Below are positions 3,424 through 32,582 of a stretch of 33,563 nt of DNA, piece by piece (position 1 is the first letter of the stretch; every line of letters begins with the position of its first letter). The notes beneath the pieces are model-generated. The model was not told the origin of the DNA. It saw only the letters and a program-made list of their open reading frames with translations, and did no database searches. A program made the position numbers and the translations under genes. The DNA comes from a virus (lineage: Duplodnaviria > Heunggongvirae > Uroviricota > Caudoviricetes), in IMG/VR virus record IMGVR_UViG_2690316149_000019; one strand, 5' to 3'.

Positions 3424-3695
3424 GTATTCGTATTGAAATTGGCGAACGTTATGTCGTTACCAGTGACAGCTTTCAGTTTATTCTCCACGAGAAAAAGAGA
3501 GCGGAAAGCGGTAAAAACGCCGGTCAGGAATGGCTGGCGGTGGTTGGTTATTACCCGAAATTAGGCCAGCTCGTTTCCGGCCTGATGCATCACGATATTC
3601 TGACCGGAAGCGCAAAATCTTTTGCTGATTTAAACGCGCAGGTTGAGCAACTCAGCAAGCGTTGTTCAGAGGCTTTTGGCTCATATGGCCGTTAA
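3420..3695 (+). CDS. Small early protein (P2 orf83 position)
   Basis: 91-aa ORF overlapping its neighbours by a few nucleotides. Confidence 0.6.
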   Translation: MSIRIEIGERYVVTSDSFQFILHEKKRAESGKNAGQEWLAVVGYYPKLGQLVSGLMHHDILTGSAKSFADLNAQVEQLSKRCSEAFGSYGR

Positions 3696-5970
3696 AGCCT
3701 CCGGGCGTTTTGTCCCTCCGTCAGCATTTACCGCAGGCACCGGTAAGGCGTTTACCGGTGCTTATGCATGGAACGCGCCACGCGAGGCTGTCGGGCGCGA
3801 AAGACCTCTTACACGTGACGAGATGCGTCAGGTGCAAGGTGTTTTATCCACGATTAACCGCCTGCCTTACTTTTTGCGCTCGCTGTTTACTTCACGCTAT
3901 GACTACATCCGGCGCAATAAAAGCCCGGTGCACGGGTTTTATTTCCTCACATCTACTTTTCAGCGTCGTTTATGGCCGCGCATTGAGCGTGTGAATCAGC
4001 GCCATGAAATGAACACCGACGCGTCGTTGCTGTTTCTGGCAGAGCGTGACCACTATGCGCGCCTGCCGGGAATGAATGACAAGGAGCTGAAAAAGTTTGC
4101 CGCCCGTATCTCATCGCAGCTTTTCATGATGTATGAGGAACTCTGCGATGCATGGGTTGATGCGCATGGTGAAAAAGAATCGCTGTTTACGGATGAGGCG
4201 CAGGCTCACCTGTATGGTCATGTTGCTGGCGCTGCACGTGCTTTCAATATTTCCCCGCTCTACTGGAAAAAATACCGTAAAGGACAGATGACCACGAGGC
4301 AGGCATATTCTGCCATTGCCCGCCTGTTTAACGATGAGTGGTGGACTCATCAGCTTAAAGGCCAGCGTATGCGCTGGCATGAGGCGTTACTGATAGCTGT
4401 CGGGGAGGTCAATAAAGACCGTTCTCCTTATGCCAGTAAACACGCCATTCGTGATGTGCGTGCGCGCCGCCAGGCAAATCTGGAATTTCTTAAATCGTGT
4501 GACCTTGAAAACAGGGAAACCGGCGAGCGCATCGACCTTATCAGTAAGGTGATGGGCAGTATTTCTAATCCTGAAATTCGCCGGATGGAGCTGATGAACA
4601 CCATTGCCGGTATTGAGCGTTACGCCGCCGCAGAGGGTGATGTGGGGATGTTTATCACGCTGACCGCGCCGTCAAAGTATCACCCGACACGTCAGGTCGG
4701 AAAAGGCGAAAGTAAAACCGTTCAGCTTAATCACGGCTGGAACGATGAGGCATTTAATCCAAAGGATGCGCAGCGTTATCTCTGCCGTATCTGGAGCCTG
4801 ATGCGCACGGCATTCAAGGATAATGATTTACAGGTCTACGGTTTGCGAGTCGTCGAGCCACACCACGACGGAACGCCGCACTGGCATATGATGCTTTTTT
4901 GTCATCCACGCCAGCGTAACCAGATTATCGAAATCATGCGTCGCTATGCGCTCAAAGAGGATGGCGACGAAAGAGGAGCCGCGCGAAACCGTTTTCAGGC
5001 AAAACACCTTAACCGGGGCGGTGCTGCGGGATATATCGCGAAATACATTTCAAAAAACATCGACGGCTATGCACTGGATGGTCAGCTCGATAACGACACC
5101 GGCAGGCCGCTGAAAGACACTGCAGCGGCTGTTACCGCATGGGCGTCAACGTGGCGCATCCCGCAATTTAAAACGGTTGGCCTGCCGACAATGGGGGCTT
5201 ACCGTGAACTACGCAAATTGCCTCGCGGCGTCAGCATTGCTGATGAGTTTGACGAGCGCGTCGAGGCTGCACGCGCCGCCGCAGACAGTGGTGATTTTGC
5301 GCTGTATATCAGCGCGCAGGGCGGGGCAAATGTCCCGCGCGATTGTCAGACTGTCAGGGTCGCCCGTAGTCTGTCGGATGACGTTAACGAGTACGAGGAA
5401 GAAGTCGAGAGAGTGGTCGGCATTTACGCGCCGCATCTCGGCGCGCGTCATATTCATATCACCAGAACGACGGACTGGCGCATTGTGCCGAAAGTTCCAG
5501 TCGTTGAGCCTTTGACTTTAAAAAGCGGCATCGCCGCGCCTCGGAGTCCTGTCAATAACTGTGGAAAGCTCACTGGTGGTGATACTTCGTTACCGGCTCC
5601 CACGCCTTCTGAGCACGCCGCAGCCGTGCTTAATCTGGTTGATGACGGTGTTATCGAATGGAATGACCCGGAGGTCGTGAGGGCGCTCAGGGGCGCATTA
5701 AAACACGGCCTGCGAACGCCAAACCGTCAGCAAAGAAACGGAAGCCCGTTAAAACCGCATGAAATTGCGCCATCGGCCAGACTGACCCGGTCGGAAAGAA
5801 TGCAAATTACCCGTATCCGCGTTGACCTTGCTCAGAACGGTATCAGGCCGCAGCGATGGGAGCTTGAGGCGCTGGCGCGTGGCGCGATCGTAAATTATGA
5901 CGGGAAAAAATTCACGTATCCGGTCGCTGATGAGTGGCCGGGATTCTCAACAGTAATGGAGTGGACATAA
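3685..5970 (+). CDS. A: Rolling-circle replication initiator endonuclease A (HUH superfamily)
   Basis: Contains the HUH metal-binding motif (EPHHDGTPHWHMMLF) and the catalytic tyrosine motif (YIAKYISKNIDGY). 761 aa from ATG 3685; the six-frame ORF start at 3643 is an upstream in-frame extension that overlaps the preceding gene. Confidence 0.93.
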   Translation: MAVKASGRFVPPSAFTAGTGKAFTGAYAWNAPREAVGRERPLTRDEMRQVQGVLSTINRLPYFLRSLFTSRYDYIRRNKSPVHGFYFLTSTFQRRLWPRIERVNQRHEMNTDASLLFLAERDHYARLPGMNDKELKKFAARISSQLFMMYEELCDAWVDAHGEKESLFTDEAQAHLYGHVAGAARAFNISPLYWKKYRKGQMTTRQAYSAIARLFNDEWWTHQLKGQRMRWHEALLIAVGEVNKDRSPYASKHAIRDVRARRQANLEFLKSCDLENRETGERIDLISKVMGSISNPEIRRMELMNTIAGIERYAAAEGDVGMFITLTAPSKYHPTRQVGKGESKTVQLNHGWNDEAFNPKDAQRYLCRIWSLMRTAFKDNDLQVYGLRVVEPHHDGTPHWHMMLFCHPRQRNQIIEIMRRYALKEDGDERGAARNRFQAKHLNRGGAAGYIAKYISKNIDGYALDGQLDNDTGRPLKDTAAAVTAWASTWRIPQFKTVGLPTMGAYRELRKLPRGVSIADEFDERVEAARAAADSGDFALYISAQGGANVPRDCQTVRVARSLSDDVNEYEEEVERVVGIYAPHLGARHIHITRTTDWRIVPKVPVVEPLTLKSGIAAPRSPVNNCGKLTGGDTSLPAPTPSEHAAAVLNLVDDGVIEWNDPEVVRALRGALKHGLRTPNRQQRNGSPLKPHEIAPSARLTRSERMQITRIRVDLAQNGIRPQRWELEALARGAIVNYDGKKFTYPVADEWPGFSTVMEWT

Positions 5971-6422
5971 TGGCAAAAATTCACGAGGTAAAGCTGCACG
6001 CAAAATATTTCGACCTTGTGCTGGAAGGAAAGAAACGCGCAGAGTTTCGGAAAAATGACCGTAATTATGAGCGCGGGGACACGTTGATTTTGCATGAATG
6101 GGTGCAGGGTGTGTATACGGGGCGAAAGGTTGAAGCCCGGATAACAGATGTTACTGACCTGTCAGACTGGCTGGAAGATTATGTCTTGCTAAGTATTGAG
6201 CTGCTTAATACAGGTGCATATGAGATTGTGAACTGGAAAGAACTTAGTGAGCGTGGTCTGGTATTCAGAATTAATCATGAAATTATGCATCAGCTCGGCC
6301 TTGCTGTTATGTATGAACCAGAGACGGGGATGTCTGGCGGGGCAATGGTTGCCACGGATGGAGCATGGAACTATTCAGATGAACAGATGGAGCGTGCACA
6401 GCAAAACGGGTGGCTTGGATAA
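5970..6422 (+). CDS. Accessory protein with N-terminal ASCH/DUF3850-like (PUA-fold) domain and unknown C-terminal half
   Basis: N-terminus MAKIHEVKLHAKYFDLVLEGKKRAEFRKNDRNYERGDTLILHEW resembles DUF3850/ASCH domains. Start overlaps the A stop (TAATG). Occupies the position where P2 carries orf91/tin/old. Confidence 0.6.
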   Translation: MAKIHEVKLHAKYFDLVLEGKKRAEFRKNDRNYERGDTLILHEWVQGVYTGRKVEARITDVTDLSDWLEDYVLLSIELLNTGAYEIVNWKELSERGLVFRINHEIMHQLGLAVMYEPETGMSGGAMVATDGAWNYSDEQMERAQQNGWLG

Positions 6423-6655
6423 TGCACAGAATGCCAGGCGAGATACCGCACCATAAAACTAAAAATATCAAGCTGATGGCTGTTGTTCACCGTCTACAGC
6501 AGATTATGGTCAACGAAAATCTGACGCCCGATGAGCTGGTCGGGTGTGCCGAAATAGTCCGGGATAATTACAGACGGTTTAACGATATCAGTAGACAGAA
6601 AAGTGAGACATTTCGGCCAGCTAACATGCCAAAACCACCACCACGCAGGCCGTAG
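6422..6655 (+). CDS. Small hypothetical protein
   Basis: 77-aa ORF, start overlapping the upstream stop (TAATG); proline- and basic-rich C-terminus, no recognisable domain. Could be spurious. Confidence 0.35.
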   Translation: MHRMPGEIPHHKTKNIKLMAVVHRLQQIMVNENLTPDELVGCAEIVRDNYRRFNDISRQKSETFRPANMPKPPPRRP

Positions 6656-6888
6656 AGAACCCCGCTATCCATGAAACTTGCTTTCAGGGAGGCGGGTTGA
6701 ATAAAAGTAGCTTTGCCGAAAAGTCTAACTATCTTGGTTTTTGCTGGTCCAAAGTTAATAAACAAACCTGCTTGTATGCAGCGGGTTTCCATATTGCCGT
6801 TTCGTATGCATGCCGCACCGTGCAAAGAGTATGAAAAATGTTATGGAAAAACGGGGATTAGTGTTATATTAATGGCTGAAAAGTGGTC

Positions 6889-6917
6889 TTGACACAGGTT
6901 GTTGTGTGTGGTAAGGC
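6889..6917 (+). promoter_or_regulatory. Candidate sigma70 promoter for the peptidase gene
   Basis: TTGACA at 6889-6894 followed 17 nt later by a weak -10 (TAAGGC); AGGAGG Shine-Dalgarno at 6944-6949 before ATG 6954. Confidence 0.3.
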
Positions 6918-6953
6918 TGTATCCCTTTGGCATTCAAAATGTAGGAGGCAACC

Positions 6954-7430
6954 ATGAGCATCGCAGCTAAAAATCTGCTTAATCGCTATTGGGATCGCCG
7001 ACTACCTGTCGATCCGTTTAAGCTCGCCGCAGCGTGGGGTGCAAGAGTGGAGCCGCTCAGGGAACCAGCGAATGGGTTAAGTGGTTCAGCCGTAATAGAA
7101 AATGGCATACCTTATATTTATTTTAACTCAAATGAACATTACAACCGCCAACGCTTTACTGTAGCGCATGAGCTCGGTCATCATGTTTTAGGGCATACTC
7201 AAGACGGAGAATATCATCGCGATATTGTAGGCAACTACTCAACTGGCATCCGTGATTATCGTGAAATAGAAGCTAACCAGTTTGCTGCAGAGCTATTGAT
7301 GCCGGAAGAGGCCATTCGTCAACTAGTGTCGCGTATAGGCGTTGATAGTACATTACGTTTGGCAAACATATTTAACGTTTCTGAGGCTGCTATGCACTGG
7401 CGTCTTAAAGCGTTGGGTATGGCTTACTAA
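6954..7430 (+). CDS. ImmA/IrrE-family (COG2856-like) zinc metallopeptidase
   Basis: HEXXH motif in FTVAHELGHHVLGH and a downstream glutamate-containing motif (EANQFAAELLMP). 158 aa with a strong AGGAGG ribosome-binding site. Confidence 0.75.
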   Translation: MSIAAKNLLNRYWDRRLPVDPFKLAAAWGARVEPLREPANGLSGSAVIENGIPYIYFNSNEHYNRQRFTVAHELGHHVLGHTQDGEYHRDIVGNYSTGIRDYREIEANQFAAELLMPEEAIRQLVSRIGVDSTLRLANIFNVSEAAMHWRLKALGMAY

Positions 7431-7460
7431 TACCCTCTTTAACTTTTTTCAAACCGGTTT

Positions 7461-7495
7461 AAAATCACCATTATTTTATTAATAATGGTGATTTT
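7461..7495. promoter_or_regulatory. Perfect 15-bp inverted repeat (aaaatcaccattatt / aataatggtgatttt, 5-nt loop) abutting the ATG of the membrane-protein gene
   Basis: Seen in sequence. Preceded by the 10-bp palindrome aaaccggttt (7451-7460) and followed by a T-run; the right arm contains the only Shine-Dalgarno-like element (GGTGA) for ATG 7498. Confidence 0.6.
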
Positions 7496-7497
7496 TT

Positions 7498-8118
7498 ATG
7501 GCAGATATCGACCTCTCTGGCCAATCTCCGGCTCAGTCTTCCCAGCCATCCAAAACTTCAACCTTTCCACATCCACCTAGCGATGCCGATCCAGATATTT
7601 TGTTACGTAGAGAAGTGCATGATGGCATGGAAAGGAGGGGAATGCGCTTAGTTTTGTCAGCCACCGTACTTTTTTTTGCCATAATGTTTTTATGGAAAGG
7701 TCTGTATTTCGCTCTCGAAGTCGGAAATGGTTTGCTTGCGGCTAAAAGTAGTATTGTTTCAGCGTTGGCACAAAATGATGAAAAGGTTGTTTGCGAACCT
7801 AAAACTAAATGTATTGAGCCTAAACAGCAGACAATGAAACCTACAGAAAAAACTCCCGGCATGTCAACAAAGGGTGATAGAGTAATGCCAAACTTATCTA
7901 CAGATTGGCTTTCTGCAAGTTCGCTAATTGCCATAGTCGCTTTCATCCTTGGTGTTGGCTTGACGTTAATCCTTACCCTACTTAAGTCCGCTTTTCATCA
8001 TCCGACTGATAAAAATCTCAATGAGCAAAAAACAACAGATGCGATTGAGTTGGCGACTCCCTTAAGTGAGTTAATCGCGGGTATTATTAATTATCTCAAG
8101 AGCAAATTTTCTAAATAA
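7498..8118 (+). CDS. Membrane protein of unknown function (two predicted transmembrane helices)
   Basis: 206 aa with hydrophobic stretches LVLSATVLFFAIMFLWKGLYFAL and LIAIVAFILGVGLTLILTLL and a Pro/Ser/Thr-rich N-terminus; lower GC than the phage core. Confidence 0.6.
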   Translation: MADIDLSGQSPAQSSQPSKTSTFPHPPSDADPDILLRREVHDGMERRGMRLVLSATVLFFAIMFLWKGLYFALEVGNGLLAAKSSIVSALAQNDEKVVCEPKTKCIEPKQQTMKPTEKTPGMSTKGDRVMPNLSTDWLSASSLIAIVAFILGVGLTLILTLLKSAFHHPTDKNLNEQKTTDAIELATPLSELIAGIINYLKSKFSK

Positions 8119-8327
8119 CGTCCTCTTGGTTATTTTTTAAATCAGCACCATTAGTGCCGGTTTTTTTATGCTGTTTTACTGTAATTTCCCTGTTTTTAAG
8201 CCGTGCATGCAGCAGGTGCATGGTTTTGCATGCGCAGGAAGTGTCCGTTCTGGCCGAGCACCGGCAGAACGGACGCGGATCCAGAACGGTCATGCAACTG
8301 CATTCAAACCACCCCATGAAGCGGGCG

Positions 8328-8346
8328 GGCGAGGCGGGGAAAGCAC
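8328..8346. other. cos: cos site (19-nt cohesive end sequence, P2-type)
   Basis: ggcgaggcggggaaagcac matches the P2 cohesive-end sequence as I recall it. It lies between the accessory locus and Q, where cos sits in P2, and a 10-bp stem-loop (8243-8274) is nearby. Confidence 0.7.
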
Positions 8347-8515
8347 TGCGCGCTGGCGGTGGTGCTGATTTTATTTTTTCAGCGTCTGAGCGCGTCGTGA
8401 TGGCGTTTAGATTGTGCGCCGGGGCGTTGGTGTGTCTGCGGGCTGTTTTGTGCGGTGGTGAGCGTGTGAGGGCGTGATGACGGGGGGTAAAAAAGCCGCC
8501 CGCAGGCGGCGATGT

Positions 8516-9550
8516 TCAGCCGTTGTCAGTGTCCAGTGAGTAGTTTTTAAAGCGGATGACCTCCTGACCGAGCCAGCCGTTTATCTCGCGGATCCTGTCC
8601 TGTAACGGGATAAGCTCATTGCGGACAAAGACCTTTGCCACTTTCTCAATATCACCCAGCGACCCGACGTTCTCCGGCTTGCCGCCCATCAACTGAAAGG
8701 GGATGCGGTGCGCGTCCAGCAGGTCAGCGGCGCTGGCTTTTTTGATATTAAAAAAATCGTCCTTCGTTGCCACTTCACTGAGCGGGATAATTTTAATGCC
8801 GTCGGCTTTCCCCTGCGGGGCATAGAGAAACAGATTTTTAAAGTTGTTGCGGCCTTTCGACTTGACCATGTTTTCGCGAAGCATTTCGATATCGTTGCGA
8901 TCCTGCACGGCATCGGTAACGTACATGATATATCCGGCATGAGCGCCGTTTTCGTAATACTTGCGGCGGAACAGCGTGGCCGACTCATTCAGCCAGGCAG
9001 AATTAAGGGCGCTGAGATATTCCGGCAGGCCGTACAGCTCCTGATTAATATCCGGCTCCAGCAGGTGAAACACGGAGCCGGGTGCGAAGGCTGTCGGCTC
9101 GTTGAAGGACGGCACCCACCAGTAAACATCCTCCTCCACACCTCGGCGGGTATATTTTGCCGGTGAGGTTTCCAGTCTGATGACCTTACCGGTGGTGCTG
9201 TAACGCTTTTCCAGAAACGCATTACCGAACACCAGAAAATCCAGCACAAAGCGGCTGAAATCCTGCTGGGAAAGCCACGGATGCGGGATAAATGTCGAGG
9301 CCAGAATATTACGTTTGACGTAAATCGGTGAGCTGTGATGCACGGCAGCACGCAGGCTTTTTGCCAGACCGGTAAAGCTGATCGGTGGCTCATACCATCT
9401 GCCGTTACTGATGCACTCGACGTAATCCAGAATGTCACGGCGGTCGAGTACCGGCACCGGCTCACCAAAGGTGAATGCTTCCATTTTCGGGGCGCTGGCG
9501 GTCATTGTTTTTGCCGCAGGTTGCGGTGTTTTCCCTTTTTTCTTGCTCAT
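8516..9550 (-). CDS. Q: Portal protein
   Basis: 344-aa ORF matching P2 gpQ in length and position; start overlaps the stop of P. Confidence 0.9.
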   Translation of the reverse strand: MSKKKGKTPQPAAKTMTASAPKMEAFTFGEPVPVLDRRDILDYVECISNGRWYEPPISFTGLAKSLRAAVHHSSPIYVKRNILASTFIPHPWLSQQDFSRFVLDFLVFGNAFLEKRYSTTGKVIRLETSPAKYTRRGVEEDVYWWVPSFNEPTAFAPGSVFHLLEPDINQELYGLPEYLSALNSAWLNESATLFRRKYYENGAHAGYIMYVTDAVQDRNDIEMLRENMVKSKGRNNFKNLFLYAPQGKADGIKIIPLSEVATKDDFFNIKKASAADLLDAHRIPFQLMGGKPENVGSLGDIEKVAKVFVRNELIPLQDRIREINGWLGQEVIRFKNYSLDTDNG

Positions 9551-17763: not shown

Positions 17764-18549
17764 TTATGAGTGATTTTTATTTGATGCTTTGTATTCTAAA
17801 ACCTTCTTATTGGCGTAAAAGAATTTTGTATATGACAGGAATATAACCAGACCTGAAGTGAAATAGACGAGGGATAGTATTAATAATGCTTTTTTGTGAC
17901 TGTTATTATCTTTAATCTCCTGGCTTAACCATTCGGAGTCCTCCTCGTTTAGCTGTAAGAGCTTATTGCAGGCGATTTCAGGAAGTGTGTCTTTTATAAA
18001 TACGTTTTGCAGTCTCTTGCAATCGGCAAGGCTATAAGTTTTATTAAATTCAACTGCTTTATTTTTGAAGGATAAAAGAACTTTGTCACTATAAACATAG
18101 TACATCATATTTTTATATGGTATGCCTATGGCATCTCTTACTATAGCGGATTGTTTGTTGTGTATATAACATGCGAAGAGAATATAAATAATACTGGCCA
18201 GAATTACAATTATTGTTTTAATTATGTGTGGTGGTTTTGTTATGTCACCCCAGATGCGAGTAAGGAAAAAATACGATGTTTTTAGTTTTCCATCAATCAG
18301 TCCCTGCTGTATCATTCTCACATTTTCAATGCCTGATACATTGATTCCGTTAATTATTTTAAATAGTTGAATGTCGCGCCACTCGCGGTCAAGTCTTTTT
18401 AATTTTTTGTCTGAATATCCAAAATTGAAATAATGTGCAATAAGCCTCATAAGGTTACTTTTACCAAAGCTAAAAAATGCTAATACTGCAAAGCTACAAA
18501 GGAAAAAAACGATTAGCCCCCACACATTAGTCACATTATAGCTGACCAT
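17764..18549 (-). CDS. AT-rich moron: membrane protein of unknown function (P2 orf30 position)
   Basis: 261 aa with three hydrophobic helices (N-terminal, central, C-terminal), Lys/Asn/Ile/Tyr-rich. Much lower GC than the flanking tail genes and transcribed against the late operon. Confidence 0.7.
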   Translation of the reverse strand: MVSYNVTNVWGLIVFFLCSFAVLAFFSFGKSNLMRLIAHYFNFGYSDKKLKRLDREWRDIQLFKIINGINVSGIENVRMIQQGLIDGKLKTSYFFLTRIWGDITKPPHIIKTIIVILASIIYILFACYIHNKQSAIVRDAIGIPYKNMMYYVYSDKVLLSFKNKAVEFNKTYSLADCKRLQNVFIKDTLPEIACNKLLQLNEEDSEWLSQEIKDNNSHKKALLILSLVYFTSGLVIFLSYTKFFYANKKVLEYKASNKNHS

Positions 18550-18632
18550 TACGCTCTCCTTGAATGTTGTCTGGTAGTTCTACAAATGAATCCAGATAGC
18601 ATAACTTTTATATATTGTGCAATCTCACATGC

Positions 18633-19268
18633 ATGAACACTCTCGCAAATATTCAGGAACTCGCGCGCGCACTGCGCAACATGATTCGCACCGGCATTAT
18701 CGTCGAAACCGACCTTAACGCCGGTCGCTGCCGCGTGCAGACCGGCGGCATGTGCACCGACTGGCTTCAGTGGCTGACCCATCGTGCCGGGCGTTCGCGC
18801 ACATGGTGGGCACCTTCCGTGGGGGAACAGGTGCTGATTCTGGCCGTGGGCGGTGAACTCGACACGGCGTTCGTTCTGCCGGGGATTTATTCCGGCGATA
18901 ACCCTGCGCCGTCTGCGTCGGCTGATGCCCTGCATATCCGTTTCCCTGACGGGGCGGTGATTGAGTATGAACCCGAAACCAGTGCACTCACGGTAAGCGG
19001 AATTAAAACGGCCAGCGTGACGGCTTCTGATTCTGTTACTGCCACGGTACCGGTGGTCACGGTGAAAGCGTCAACCCGTGTCACCCTGGACACACCAGAA
19101 GTGGTCTGCACTAACAAACTGACTACCGGCACGCTGGAAGTGCAGAAGGGCGGGACGATGCGCGGCAACATTGAACACACCGGCGGTGAACTCTCATCAA
19201 ACGGTAAGGTACTGCATACCCATAAACACCCCGGCGACAGCGGCGGCACAACCGGGAGTCCTTTATGA
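18633..19268 (+). CDS. V: Baseplate spike protein
   Basis: 211 aa from MNTLANIQELARALRNMIRTG, matching P2 gpV. Confidence 0.88.
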   Translation: MNTLANIQELARALRNMIRTGIIVETDLNAGRCRVQTGGMCTDWLQWLTHRAGRSRTWWAPSVGEQVLILAVGGELDTAFVLPGIYSGDNPAPSASADALHIRFPDGAVIEYEPETSALTVSGIKTASVTASDSVTATVPVVTVKASTRVTLDTPEVVCTNKLTTGTLEVQKGGTMRGNIEHTGGELSSNGKVLHTHKHPGDSGGTTGSPL

Positions 19269-23311: not shown

Positions 23312-23839
23312 ATGCAGCATTTAAAAAATATTACGGCGGGTAATCCAAAAACGGTTGAACAATATCAATTGACAAAGGACTTTGATGTTGTCTGGTTTTT
23401 TTCAGAAGATGGTAAGAACTGGTACGAAGAACAAAAGTATTTTGCTGATGACACGATAAAAATAGCGTACGACAAAGATAATATCATCCACTATGTGGAA
23501 AAGGATGTGACAGCTATCAGACCGGATGGATTAAGTGTTGTTGAAGTGGCGGATATTACTGCTAACCGACGGGCGGACATTTCAGGGAACTGGATGTTTA
23601 AGGACGGCAAAGTGATTAAACGCATTTATACGGCAGAGGAATTACAGCAGCAGGCAGAAATTCGGAAAGCCAGACTTCTTGCAGATGCTGAATCCGTGAT
23701 TTTGCCGCTGGAGCGCGCGGTCAGACTGAACATGGCAACAGATGAGGAGCGTAGCCGACTGGAATCATGGGAACGCTACAGCGTTCTGATCAGTCGTGTG
23801 GATCCTGCAAATCCTGAATGGCCGGAAATGCCGCAATAA
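23312..23839 (+). CDS. G: Tail fibre assembly chaperone
   Basis: 175 aa immediately downstream of H. Confidence 0.85.
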
Positions 23840-24178: not shown

Positions 24179-25225
24179 GTGATATTTTCTACAAAGAAAA
24201 ATATATGGAATAACGTCATCGCGGGTACAAAAATGACTATAAAAAAAACATATGTAACACCAACAGAAATAGTGAAATATTTTTATGACAAACCGGAAAA
24301 CGATAACGTAAAAGAGAGAAAAACAATTGAGAGCCTGACCCGTCTCAAACCTGAGTGGGAAAATACTCTCGATATGATGAAGTTAATACGCAATTGTGAA
24401 AAGCTAGCAACTGAAGGTATTTTAATGGAATTATCTTCAGGACATACTCTTTTGGACCGTTGCTATTTCGCACCGAATTTCAATGAATCAGATGCGAAAT
24501 ATGGAAAGTATGATTTTATAGCTGATGGATTTGAGTCAATCATAGACCGCCTTAGTCCTTCCGTTTTACCTGTTGTTGTTGAAAAAAGTGATGGTTCACA
24601 TGATCTTGGTACTAGTTTTATTGTTGGGAATAACCACACGATATTTACAGCCAGACATGTTATTGAAGACATGAAGAGTATCAGGATACTTAGAGCTGGT
24701 GGTGAGGCTTTACCAATACATAAAATCTTTGTATCTAACGATGAACGTATTGATATCGCTTTAGTTTTCACAACCATTCCGAATGAAGATAATATTCAAC
24801 CACTTAAGGTCTCAACCAAAGCCTCGGTACTGGATGAAATTTTATCAATAGGATTTCCACCCATTCCAGGATTTGATGCATTAAAGTTATATGACGTTTC
24901 GCATATAAATTCGTTTGTCCGACTGTCAAAGGGGCGAATTGTTGGTTCTGGTCACTCTTACTTAGATTCACAAGACTTTTTATTATTCAATGCTAGGGTT
25001 AAGGGGGGGAATAGCGGTGGCCCTATAATTAACAAATACGGCTTTGTTGTTGGTATGCTTGTACAAATACCAATATCATCTGAGGACAGTTCAAAGATTG
25101 ATAACCTTGGATATGGTATAGCTGTAACAGGAAAAAGCCTGCTGGATGCCATTACATTTACAGAAAATGGCCGCGAATTAACACTCACCGACCGAGGAAA
25201 TGGAGAATATTCAACTCTAGCATAA
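24179..25225 (+). CDS. AT-rich moron: trypsin-like (S1/chymotrypsin-fold) serine protease with an unknown N-terminal domain of about 140 aa
   Basis: Catalytic triad context in order: TARHVIED (His), ERIDIALVF (Asp), GGNSGGPII (GxSGG Ser). The annotated start is a GTG; an in-frame ATG at 24233 is an alternative. Occupies the P2 Z/fun position between G and FI. Confidence 0.75.
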   Translation: MIFSTKKNIWNNVIAGTKMTIKKTYVTPTEIVKYFYDKPENDNVKERKTIESLTRLKPEWENTLDMMKLIRNCEKLATEGILMELSSGHTLLDRCYFAPNFNESDAKYGKYDFIADGFESIIDRLSPSVLPVVVEKSDGSHDLGTSFIVGNNHTIFTARHVIEDMKSIRILRAGGEALPIHKIFVSNDERIDIALVFTTIPNEDNIQPLKVSTKASVLDEILSIGFPPIPGFDALKLYDVSHINSFVRLSKGRIVGSGHSYLDSQDFLLFNARVKGGNSGGPIINKYGFVVGMLVQIPISSEDSSKIDNLGYGIAVTGKSLLDAITFTENGRELTLTDRGNGEYSTLA

Positions 25226-25822: not shown

Positions 25823-27013
25823 ATGAGTGACTATCATCACGGTGTGCAGGTGCTGGAGATTAACGACGGCACCCGCGTCATTTCCACCGTATCCACGGCC
25901 ATTGTCGGCATGGTCTGCACGGCCAGCGATGCGGATGCGGAAACCTTCCCCCTCAATAAACCGGTGCTGATTACCAATGTGCAGAGCGCAATTGCAAAGG
26001 CCGGTAAAAAAGGCACGCTGGCGGCATCGTTGCAGGCCATCGCCGACCAGTCAAAACCGGTCACCGTTGTCGTGCGTGTGGAAGACGGCACCGGCGACGA
26101 CGAGGAAACGAAACTCGCGCAGACCGTTTCCAATATCATCGGCACCACTGACGAAAACGGTCAGTACACCGGACTGAAAGCCCTGCTGGCGGCGGAGTCG
26201 GTAACCGGTGTTAAACCGCGTATTCTTGGTGTGCCGGGGCTGGATACCAAAGAGGTGGCTGTTGCACTGGCATCAGTCTGTCAGAAGCTGCGCGCTTTCG
26301 GATATATCAGCGCATGGGGCTGTAAAACCATTTCCGAGGTGAAAGCCTACCGCCAGAATTTCAGCCAGCGTGAGCTGATGGTCATCTGGCCGGATTTCCT
26401 CGCATGGGATACGGTCACCAGTACCACCGCCACCGCGTATGCCACCGCCCGTGCGCTGGGTCTGCGTGCCAAAATCGACCAGGAGCAGGGCTGGCATAAA
26501 ACGCTGTCCAACGTCGGGGTAAACGGTGTTACCGGCATCAGCGCATCTGTATTCTGGGATTTGCAGGAGTCCGGCACCGATGCTGACCTGCTTAACGAGT
26601 CAGGCGTCACTACGCTGATTCGCCGCGACGGTTTCCGATTCTGGGGTAACCGTACCTGCTCTGATGACCCGCTGTTCCTCTTTGAAAACTACACCCGCAC
26701 CGCGCAGGTGCTGGCCGACACGATGGCTGAGGCGCACATGTGGGCGGTGGACAAGCCCATCACTGCAACGCTGATTCGCGACATTGTTGACGGCATCAAT
26801 GCCAAATTCCGTGAGCTGAAAACAAACGGCTATATCGTGGATGCGACCTGCTGGTTCAGCGAAGAATCCAACGATGCGGAAACCCTCAAGGCCGGAAAAC
26901 TGTATATCGACTACGACTATACACCGGTGCCTCCTCTTGAAAACCTGACCCTGCGCCAGCGTATTACCGATAAATACCTGGCAAATCTGGTCACCTCGGT
27001 TAACAGCAATTAA
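25823..27013 (+). CDS. FI: Tail sheath protein
   Basis: 396 aa, P2 gpFI length and position. Confidence 0.9.
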   Translation: MSDYHHGVQVLEINDGTRVISTVSTAIVGMVCTASDADAETFPLNKPVLITNVQSAIAKAGKKGTLAASLQAIADQSKPVTVVVRVEDGTGDDEETKLAQTVSNIIGTTDENGQYTGLKALLAAESVTGVKPRILGVPGLDTKEVAVALASVCQKLRAFGYISAWGCKTISEVKAYRQNFSQRELMVIWPDFLAWDTVTSTTATAYATARALGLRAKIDQEQGWHKTLSNVGVNGVTGISASVFWDLQESGTDADLLNESGVTTLIRRDGFRFWGNRTCSDDPLFLFENYTRTAQVLADTMAEAHMWAVDKPITATLIRDIVDGINAKFRELKTNGYIVDATCWFSEESNDAETLKAGKLYIDYDYTPVPPLENLTLRQRITDKYLANLVTSVNSN

Positions 27014-32535: not shown

Positions 32536-32582
32536 GACACCATCCCTGTCTTCCCCCACATGATGTGGGGTTTTTTTTTATC
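32536..32582. repeat. attR: attR core: 47-bp direct repeat of 24-70
   Basis: 46 of 47 positions identical to the attL copy; includes the same terminator-like hairpin and T-tract. Confidence 0.85.

Follow-up and report, generated by a model that had tools for sequence, protein, structure and literature searches.

The 33,563-nucleotide viral stretch analyzed here (IMG/VR record IMGVR_UViG_2690316149_000019, hereafter the window) is an integrated P2-like prophage, and the slot between its gene A and cos carries a pair of genes encoding a standalone M78 zinc metallopeptidase (ORF3; ORF, open reading frame) and a membrane protein with two predicted transmembrane (TM) helices (ORF4). Our preferred reading, to which we assign a probability of about 55%, is that positions ~6833-8139 are a moron in the A-to-cos defense hotspot of P2, namely, an autonomous RosmerTA-type toxin-antitoxin/abortive-infection module. 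Judged from its sequence, the locus is probably a compact two-gene defensive module that PADLOC-DB v2.0.0 does not recognize. The combination of an M78 antitoxin with a membrane toxin is already known; what is new here is the effector family and the candidate device, joining a terminator to a ribosome-binding site (RBS), that lies between the two genes. The elements of the segment are the following, with positions counted along the window.

6833-6953, plus strand: conserved upstream block, putative autonomous promoter
6862-6870, plus strand: extended -10-like block TGTTATATT, invariant across eight P2-like loci
6889-6894, plus strand: TTGACA, of which TTGAC is invariant across the same eight loci
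6912-6917, plus strand: TAAGGC (as TG-n-TAAGGC), invariant across the same eight loci
6943-6948, plus strand: Shine-Dalgarno sequence AGGAGG upstream of ORF3
6954-7430, plus strand: ORF3, 158 amino acids (aa), standalone M78 (ImmA/IrrE) zinc metallopeptidase with the motif HELGH
7461-7497, plus strand: stem-loop and U-run, with a perfect 15-bp stem (7461-7475/7481-7495) and a 5-nucleotide (nt) loop
7498-8118, plus strand: ORF4, 206 aa, predicted inner-membrane protein with two hydrophobic helices

The M78 peptidase and its membrane partner

ORF3 matched the Peptidase_M78 family of Pfam (PF06114, 8e-23), and its catalytic residues are H72-E73-L-G-H76 and E104. In an alignment of 33 ORF3 homologs, H72, E73, H76, and E104 were invariant. 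The AlphaFold2 (AF2) model, which reached a predicted local distance difference test (pLDDT) score of 87.9, consisted of an M78 protease domain and a helical subdomain. Because the catalytic residues are invariant and the M78 fold is predicted with confidence, ORF3 is probably an active peptidase. The nearest folds that Foldseek retrieved from the Protein Data Bank were CapP (7t5t) and IrrE/PprI, with target-normalized TM-scores of 0.38 to 0.42. Among the PADLOC models, capP scored best (3.8e-31) and RmrA was also matched (7.5e-20), in both cases over the peptidase part only: ORF3 spans positions 9-151 of the 242 in the capP profile, and the best RmrA model aligned through its positions 146-267 of 363. 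Pfam detected no helix-turn-helix (HTH) domain in ORF3, and the protein has no C-terminal sensor domain. The spr1629 antitoxin model of NCBIfam scored 41.8 bits on ORF3 against a cutoff of 335.

ORF4 corresponds to phrog_8096 (2e-102), a small family without an assigned function, of which a set of 1.84 billion clustered proteins contains 54 representatives. It had no match in Pfam, in NCBIfam, or in PADLOC (0 families at E <= 1), so that the PADLOC check proposed in the first-pass annotation of this DNA gave the partial capP and RmrA matches of ORF3 and nothing for its partner. Hydropathy placed the TM segments of ORF4 at about residues 47-75 and 133-167; we delimit TM1 at about 50-73 and TM2, which is almost invariant (AFILGVGLTL), at about 140-163. 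The N-terminus (about residues 1-30) is variable, disordered, and rich in P, S, and Q. Aligning 25 homologs revealed a near-invariant juxtamembrane motif, ERRxMR, before TM1 and two invariant cysteines, C99 and C105, in the predicted external loop. An invariant HPTD lies just inside the membrane and is followed by a conserved amphipathic C-terminal helix (ATPLSEL...YLKxKFSK). AF2 placed helices at residues 32-94, 132-166, and 169-204, with low confidence. When GTDB contigs were scanned for peptide patterns of ORF4, 29 matches emerged, none of which tblastn confirmed, and they were left unused.

The two genes travel together. An M78 gene was found directly upstream of the ORF4 homolog in 25 of 25 fetched loci, among them a distant pair with 41%/28% identity, and the E. 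coli matches listed all carry both genes. The pairwise identities of the two proteins co-vary across 18 pairs (Spearman 0.78, n = 153). Three unrelated contexts were found for the pair: the A-to-portal hotspot of P2-like phages, with gpA identities as low as 31 to 37%; RepL plasmids of Enterobacter and Vibrio, where it adjoins repL; and a chromosomal island of Serratia nevei between phn/arsP and nrdD. The neighbor of the pair in the Serratia island is a canonical RosmerTA, that is, RmrT plus RmrA as defined by Millman et al. (2022, bioRxiv 10.1101/2022.05.11.491447). It lies ~1.8 kb downstream (locus L005, 8463-10246; RmrT 8.5e-59, then RmrA 2.7e-145), and two M78-based modules thus stand side by side. 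We conclude that the M78 and two-TM genes are an obligately linked, co-diverging, mobile pair.

The search with ORF3 also returned a second tier of standalone M78 proteins with 45 to 52% identity. All the genes of this tier that we examined (from Klebsiella, Pseudomonas, and Maridesulfovibrio) precede a gene for a two-TM protein, and the partners have a common layout: a polar N-terminus, a basic juxtamembrane motif, TM1, a loop, TM2, and a lysine-rich C-terminal helix. A search of phage records added the M78 genes of Burkholderia phage Carl1 and Pseudoalteromonas phage ACA1 (42 to 45% identity), which likewise have a two-TM gene next to them. The Carl1 and ACA1 pairs both adjoin cos, the Klebsiella pair lies at the end of a prophage, and the Pseudomonas pair comes right after the S24 repressor gene of a prophage. 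Homology of the partner to ORF4 is demonstrable for ACA1 gp2 (5e-17) and for the Klebsiella protein (1e-19). With the ORF4 family profile, the Burkholderia partner reached a probability of 42%, which is weak, and the Pseudomonas partner 16%, which is not significant. Given these two values and the 0.5% obtained for RmrT_D5 of Gordonia phage Kita, we do not claim common descent of all two-TM partners.

Some loci have a third gene beside the pair. In the commonest P2-like allele of E. coli it encodes 313 aa (locus L007, 6683-7624, minus strand), and in the Enterobacter and Vibrio plasmids a gene of ~305 aa follows 44 nt downstream of the pair (L003, 6663-7583, plus strand; L039, 4543-5463; L040, 4549-5463). 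The third genes of L007 and L003 had no match in Pfam or PADLOC. The two show no relationship to one another, and neither is present in the window; we therefore rejected third genes as part of the module core.

The limits of the cargo were set by comparing carriers. Their nucleotide homology begins at window positions 6831-6835 in P2-like carriers, and at 6709-6712 in two loci; among loci with differing flanks, it stops at 8119-8139. Because of these start and end points, and because the two upstream genes of the slot, ORF1 and ORF2, are absent from most carriers, we place the cargo at ~6833-8139. By this comparison, the segment that moves as a unit comprises the promoter block, ORF3, the intergenic hairpin, and ORF4, that is, two genes; positions 6656-6832, just upstream, are not conserved among carriers. 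The ORF3-ORF4 segment is present in 50 of 5426 complete E. coli genomes, 2 of which have the exact allele. The first-pass annotation had seen a four-gene, non-P2 cargo replacing orf91, tin, and old. It had correctly recognized four ORFs between A and cos, with a DUF3850/ASCH domain in ORF1, the M78 HELGH in ORF3, and the two helices of ORF4, but orf91 is kept (as ORF1), ORF2 belongs to the backbone, and the cargo is reduced to two genes. Taking orf91 and orf92 as cargo would mislead both cloning and the definition of hotspot boundaries.

Putative promoter block and intergenic hairpin

Within the upstream block, the TTGACA and TAAGGC hexamers are separated by a 17-nt spacer. Across the eight P2-like loci, the spacer is variable and the hexamers are invariant, as would be expected of a promoter; this suggests that the pair is expressed independently of the phage early operon. 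The internal promoter postulated in the first-pass annotation is thus made plausible by the conserved hexamers, although a generic promoter scan did not flag the block. No LexA box (CTGT-N8-ACAG, with at most one mismatch) was found at 6387-9332.

ORF3 and ORF4 are separated by a stem-loop whose 3' arm holds a Shine-Dalgarno-like GGTGA (7487-7491) and whose U-run (7492-7497) directly abuts the AUG of ORF4. The RNA fold has a predicted energy of -21.5 kcal/mol (z = -5.2). In a covariation analysis of 12 loci, 93.5% of the cells were paired, and 6 of 14 pairs showed compensatory double changes; the observed pairing was reached by 0 of 500 shuffles, and slid controls gave 31 to 66%. One U·G wobble variant in the hairpin argues for a role at the level of RNA rather than DNA. 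Stems of other sequence were found in loci L025 and L026 (AAAGCCACC/GGTGGCUUU) and in phage ACA1 (AGCCCUU/AAGGGCU), each time in the same order of stem, U-run, and AUG. The hairpin was not called by a generic terminator scan, because its stem is AT-rich, and the sole outcome when 5800-8600 was searched with Rfam was a chance, subthreshold microRNA match, located on the hairpin.

From these sequence features, we infer that the hairpin may be an intrinsic terminator that also sequesters the RBS of ORF4. A terminator combined with a hidden RBS would imply that production of ORF4 amounts to a small fraction of that of ORF3. A conserved and covarying hairpin with a U-run and an occluded Shine-Dalgarno sequence is a form of regulation consistent with a dangerous downstream product, and a terminator burying the RBS of a toxin would be a simple regulatory device.

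Relation to RosmerTA and rival readings

The reading of the pair as a RosmerTA-type module draws on Gordonia phage Kita, whose gp32 and gp33 are RmrA_D25 and RmrT_D5 of an HTH-less RosmerTA (Ernits 2023, PMC10440598). The downstream TM protein of Kita is toxic and depolarizes and permeabilizes E. coli membranes, and the Kita pair protects against the BASEL phages Bas54 and Bas59 (PMC10440598). ORF3 aligned with Kita gp32 over 97% of its length at 37.7% identity (tblastn, query residues 4-157, E 3e-16), and both have an N-terminal YW..PVDP, the HExxH, and E..AN.FA..LLMP. In both phages, a standalone M78 protein of about 160 to 180 aa is encoded first and a small two-TM protein with a cytosolic N-terminus second, and in both the pair occupies an accessory slot of a temperate phage. 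The PADLOC signature of gp32 is that of ORF3, gp33 and ORF4 match no model, and neither pair is called by PADLOC v2. The homology of ORF3 to gp32 links phrog_8096, an effector family that PADLOC-DB v2.0.0 does not recognize and that is unnamed in Pfam and NCBIfam, to the sole experimentally validated HTH-less RosmerTA.

The two pairs also differ. Kita gp33 has 119 aa, with TM segments at 60-79 and 86-108, whereas ORF4 has 206 aa, a loop of ~65 aa with two conserved cysteines, and a conserved C-terminal amphipathic helix. The Kita genes overlap, but the conserved hairpin, with its putative terminator/RBS function, lies between the two genes here. The host of Kita belongs to the Actinobacteria and the hosts here to the Enterobacterales; toxicity and defense are properties established for the Kita pair alone. 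Canonical RosmerTA, to which the clpP-dependent toxin-antitoxin of E. coli E101 belongs (bioRxiv 10.1101/2020.05.25.114553), resembles our locus in that a variable toxin is paired with a protein bearing an M78 zinc-peptidase domain, in a two-gene operon located on mobile elements. Dependence on clpX/clpP has been reported for RosmerTA systems. However, canonical RmrA has 360 to 400 aa, an N-terminal XRE HTH, and a C-terminal extension, whereas ORF3 is an HTH-less protein of 158 aa, and the toxin gene, usually the first in canonical operons, is here preceded by the ORF3 gene. Of the canonical hallmarks, the locus thus has the M78 antitoxin and lacks both the HTH-bearing antitoxin of 360 to 400 aa and a match to RmrT.

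If the locus is a RosmerTA-type module, ORF4 would sit in the inner membrane with both termini in the cytoplasm and, when unrestrained, would oligomerize and depolarize or permeabilize the membrane. ORF3 would neutralize it in the cytoplasm, by binding or by zinc-dependent clipping, and its target would probably be the conserved cytosolic HPTD/ATPLSEL tail. The terminator/RBS hairpin would ensure that far less toxin than antitoxin is made. When a competing phage infects, neutralization would be lifted, and the lysogen would die or arrest before the invader finishes its cycle. This scheme postulates a direct interaction between ORF3 and ORF4, a part for proteolysis, a trigger, and a defense phenotype. 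If it is true, the architecture extends from an actinophage to elements of Enterobacterales, Vibrio, Pseudomonas, Burkholderia, and Pseudoalteromonas, and the locus would offer a tractable E. coli system in which to study the control of membrane toxins by M78 peptidases.

Several observations weigh against this scheme. The toxicity of ORF4 is deduced from its topology, its partner, and its regulation only. ORF4 matches no RmrT model of PADLOC, its family profile gave an hhalign probability of 0.5% with Kita RmrT_D5 (gp33), and blastp between the two returned nothing at E <= 10. The AF2 model of ORF4 (pLDDT 59.6) is too uncertain for a fold search. Even in the reference system, the M78 protein of Kita neutralizes its toxin just partially, and their complex could not be predicted (PMC10440598). 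Furthermore, a stable enzyme in the role of antitoxin leaves the activation step without explanation, and the hairpin might serve mainly as a plain terminator or as a protein-binding palindrome.

The first-pass annotation had considered the slot a strong candidate for an uncharacterized defense system. The candidacy now applies to two genes: the A-to-portal slot of P2 is a documented defense hotspot (Vassallo 2022, PMC9519451; Rousset 2022, PMC9122126), the A-to-cos slot of P2-like phages being a major reservoir of antiphage genes, and ORF3-ORF4 have the look of a defense or toxin-antitoxin module. The word uncharacterized fits the membrane effector family and its regulation, but not the peptidase, which is homologous to the validated RmrA_D25 of Kita. 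The pair is not mentioned in Rousset 2022 (PMC9122126), in Vassallo 2022 (PMC9519451), or in a 2026 preprint on P2/P4 hotspots.

A bolder version of the RosmerTA-type reading, which we offer tentatively and regard as improbable in its entirety, is that the peptidase works catalytically on ORF4, either as a proteolytic antitoxin that trims a pore former or as the gatekeeper of a protease-gated pore. The RBS embedded in the terminator would then be a conditional switch, opened when a phage perturbs transcription or RNA structure, and the pair would represent a widespread Proteobacterial family of standalone M78 plus two-TM proteins, distinct from the HTH-bearing RosmerTA. In the literature compared, we found no description, for any defense system, of an enzyme antitoxin that proteolyzes a membrane toxin or of such an RNA gate.

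It is doubtful that the pair has no role in defense and is either a selfish toxin-antitoxin addiction cassette, stabilizing prophages and plasmids, or a non-killing superinfection exclusion system that blocks DNA entry at the membrane. A small inner-membrane protein with two TM helices is the typical form of phage exclusion proteins, ORF4 matches no known defense model, and the pair is found on conjugative plasmids beside replication genes, all of which would suit such a role. However, the pair recurs in moron slots of temperate phages (the P2 defense hotspot and the post-repressor slot) and adjoins a canonical RosmerTA, the homologous pair of Kita does defend, and a constitutive exclusion protein would need neither a terminator nor an occluded RBS upstream.

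We also find it unlikely that ORF4 is a protease-gated effector, that is, that an infection cue activates ORF3, which would then cleave the disordered N-terminal or the C-terminal cytosolic segment of ORF4 and so turn an inert membrane protein into a pore. This arrangement would give a purpose to the strictly conserved catalytic triad, which a purely stoichiometric antitoxin would not need, and to the long, variable, disordered N-terminus of ORF4 that adjoins the invariant ERRxMR; moreover, CapP and PprI/IrrE, the closest solved folds, are both switched on by single-stranded DNA, with which PprI was crystallized. It is at odds with the absence from ORF3 of the C-terminal domains of CapP and IrrE (positions 9-151 of 242 in capP; target TM-score ~0.4) and with the behavior of the Kita system, in which the TM protein is toxic alone and the M78 protein neutralizes. 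A terminator and a hidden RBS likewise suggest that ORF4 is harmful in itself.

Other M78 proteins act on a different kind of partner. ImmA/ImmR of ICEBs1, IrrE(PprI)/DdrO, and CapP/CapH have the M78 fold and the HExxH...E active site in common with ORF3, but in these systems the target is an adjacent HTH repressor, whereas the conserved partner here is a TM protein (25 of 25 loci), and the additional C-terminal domains of IrrE and CapP are missing from ORF3. Pfam detected no HTH domain in ORF2 or ORF4, the small ORFs at 6656-6953 lie in sequence that up to ~6832 is unconserved among carriers, and no gene of a cyclic oligonucleotide-based antiphage signaling system (CBASS) is among the ORFs of the locus. 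By far the least probable reading is an antirepressor or induction switch, in which ORF3 would cleave the repressor of its own or of a competing prophage and ORF4 would anchor or sense ORF3 at the membrane: ImmA, IrrE, and CapP do cleave HTH repressors, the ACA1 gp1 homolog is annotated as an antirepressor, and the A-to-cos slot of phage 186 holds its SOS antirepressor Tum, but ORF3 is unlike the DinI-like Tum, the surroundings of the module contain neither a LexA box nor an adjacent HTH gene, positions 6656-6832 being unconserved, and conservation of the pair is just as high on plasmids and on a chromosomal island that lack a phage repressor.

ACA1 gp1 (L034, 277-786) is an M78 protein that has been labeled an antirepressor homologous to Tum of phage 186 (PMC10612066). 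The label looks mistaken: ORF3, which is 45% identical to gp1, has no similarity to the DinI-like Tum, and tblastn of ORF3 against the right end of 186 gave no match at E <= 10. The pair does resemble tin/old of P2 and tum/orf97 of 186 in its A-to-cos position, in its putative promoter of its own, and in a GC content (fraction of guanine plus cytosine) below that of the backbone; unlike tin/old it has the opposite orientation, and unlike tum it has no LexA operator. By analogy, it also recalls RexA/RexB of phage lambda, a prophage-expressed pair in which an inner-membrane effector, proposed to depolarize the cell, accompanies a cytoplasmic component. The Pseudomonas relative lies directly 3' of a prophage repressor gene, as rexAB does, but there is no homology between the systems; RexB, with its four TM helices, differs from ORF4, and RexA, unlike ORF3, is not a peptidase.

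The A-to-cos slot and the rest of the prophage

The surroundings of the module are defined by the following features.

24-58 and 32536-32570: attL and attR, a 35-bp exact direct repeat GACACCATCCCTGTCTTCCCCCACATGATGTGGGG with a T-run after each copy
3643-5970: gpA, left edge of the slot
5970-6422, plus strand: ORF1, 150 aa, orf91 ortholog with an N-terminal DUF3850/ASCH domain and a C-terminal DUF7415 domain
6422-6655, plus strand: ORF2, 77 aa from ATG 6422 (81 aa from GTG 6410), small protein similar to Wphi gp92
8299-8346: cos region, right boundary of the hotspot, matching the cosR end of P2 (blastn, 93.8% to P2 33546-33593)
8516-9550, minus strand: portal gene

The 35-bp repeats are the attL and attR of the prophage, and the window therefore contains the entire integrated element. 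Between gpA and cos/portal, all four ORFs are on the plus strand, and the portal and terminase genes, from 8516 onward, are on the minus strand. The GC content, 0.55-0.57 in gpA, decreases to 0.46 and then to 0.38-0.41 across the slot, and it climbs to 0.60 at cos; the low GC relative to the core, noted in the first-pass annotation, is thus borne out. The same holds for the stated lack of resemblance between the four proteins and Tin or Old: when ORF1 to ORF4 were searched by tblastn against the right end of P2, the sole match was that of ORF1 to orf91, with nothing for Tin or Old. In the comparison with P2, which had been proposed as a check, orf91 was retained on one side and the cos end matched P2 cosR on the other. 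In other P2-like phages, backbone homology picks up again at ~8197.

ORF1 (phrog_1812, 8e-83) matched DUF3850 (6.5e-18) and DUF7415 (1.9e-14) in Pfam, as well as ASCH. Its residues 1-74, the DUF3850 domain, are 97% identical to P2 Orf91, and at the DNA level the window is 98% identical to P2 up to ~6190, the point where orf91 of P2 diverges. The DUF3850 annotation is also found on orthologs of P2 orf91, namely, L-413C orf91 and Wphi gp91. For ORF2 (phrog_11386, 9e-42), we prefer the start at ATG 6422, which is the one chosen by PGAP in an identical E. coli locus. From 5900 to ~6590, that is, over the end of A, ORF1, and ORF2, the window is 94 to 98% identical to Wphi and to dozens of Peduovirus records. 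The DNA of ORF1 and ORF2 with the end of A was matched in 2159 of 5426 complete E. coli genomes, which, for this backbone part of the query, puts P2-like prophages in about 40% of them. On the evidence of these alignments, ORF1 is backbone and lies outside the cargo module, and ORF2, which is absent from P2 itself, is backbone in many P2-like phages and lies outside the module too.

In most other carriers of ORF3-ORF4, neither orf91 nor orf92 is present. In two P2-like carriers without them (L002, 1562-2698; L007, 4310-5449), ~1.1 kb separates the gpA stop from the M78 gene. In L002, the ORFs of this stretch do not exceed 81 aa, and in L007 no gene is called there; it could consist of decayed genes or of noncoding sequence. 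In the RefSeq (PGAP) annotation of the identical locus of E. coli 602687, a hypothetical coding sequence of 74 aa is placed at 6568-6792 on the minus strand, overlapping the 3' end of ORF2; it is probably spurious, its sequence being unconserved among carriers.

Within the plus-strand late operon, where P2 has orf30, two abutting ORFs of 261 and 128 aa (17764-18935, minus strand) are flanked by S-like and V-like genes; searches of Pfam and PADLOC gave no match to either. The second P2 hotspot (the Z/fun position), between a G-like gene (23312-23839) and an FI-like gene (25823-27013), holds an ORF of 348 aa (24179-25225, plus strand) in which aa 144-293 form a trypsin-like peptidase domain (Pfam Trypsin_2, 1.8e-17), whereas the first ~130 aa have no domain assignment. 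In PADLOC, this protein was matched in part by the protease domains of RT-Protease_XI, LmuA, and HamA, and it is a possible single-gene defense candidate.

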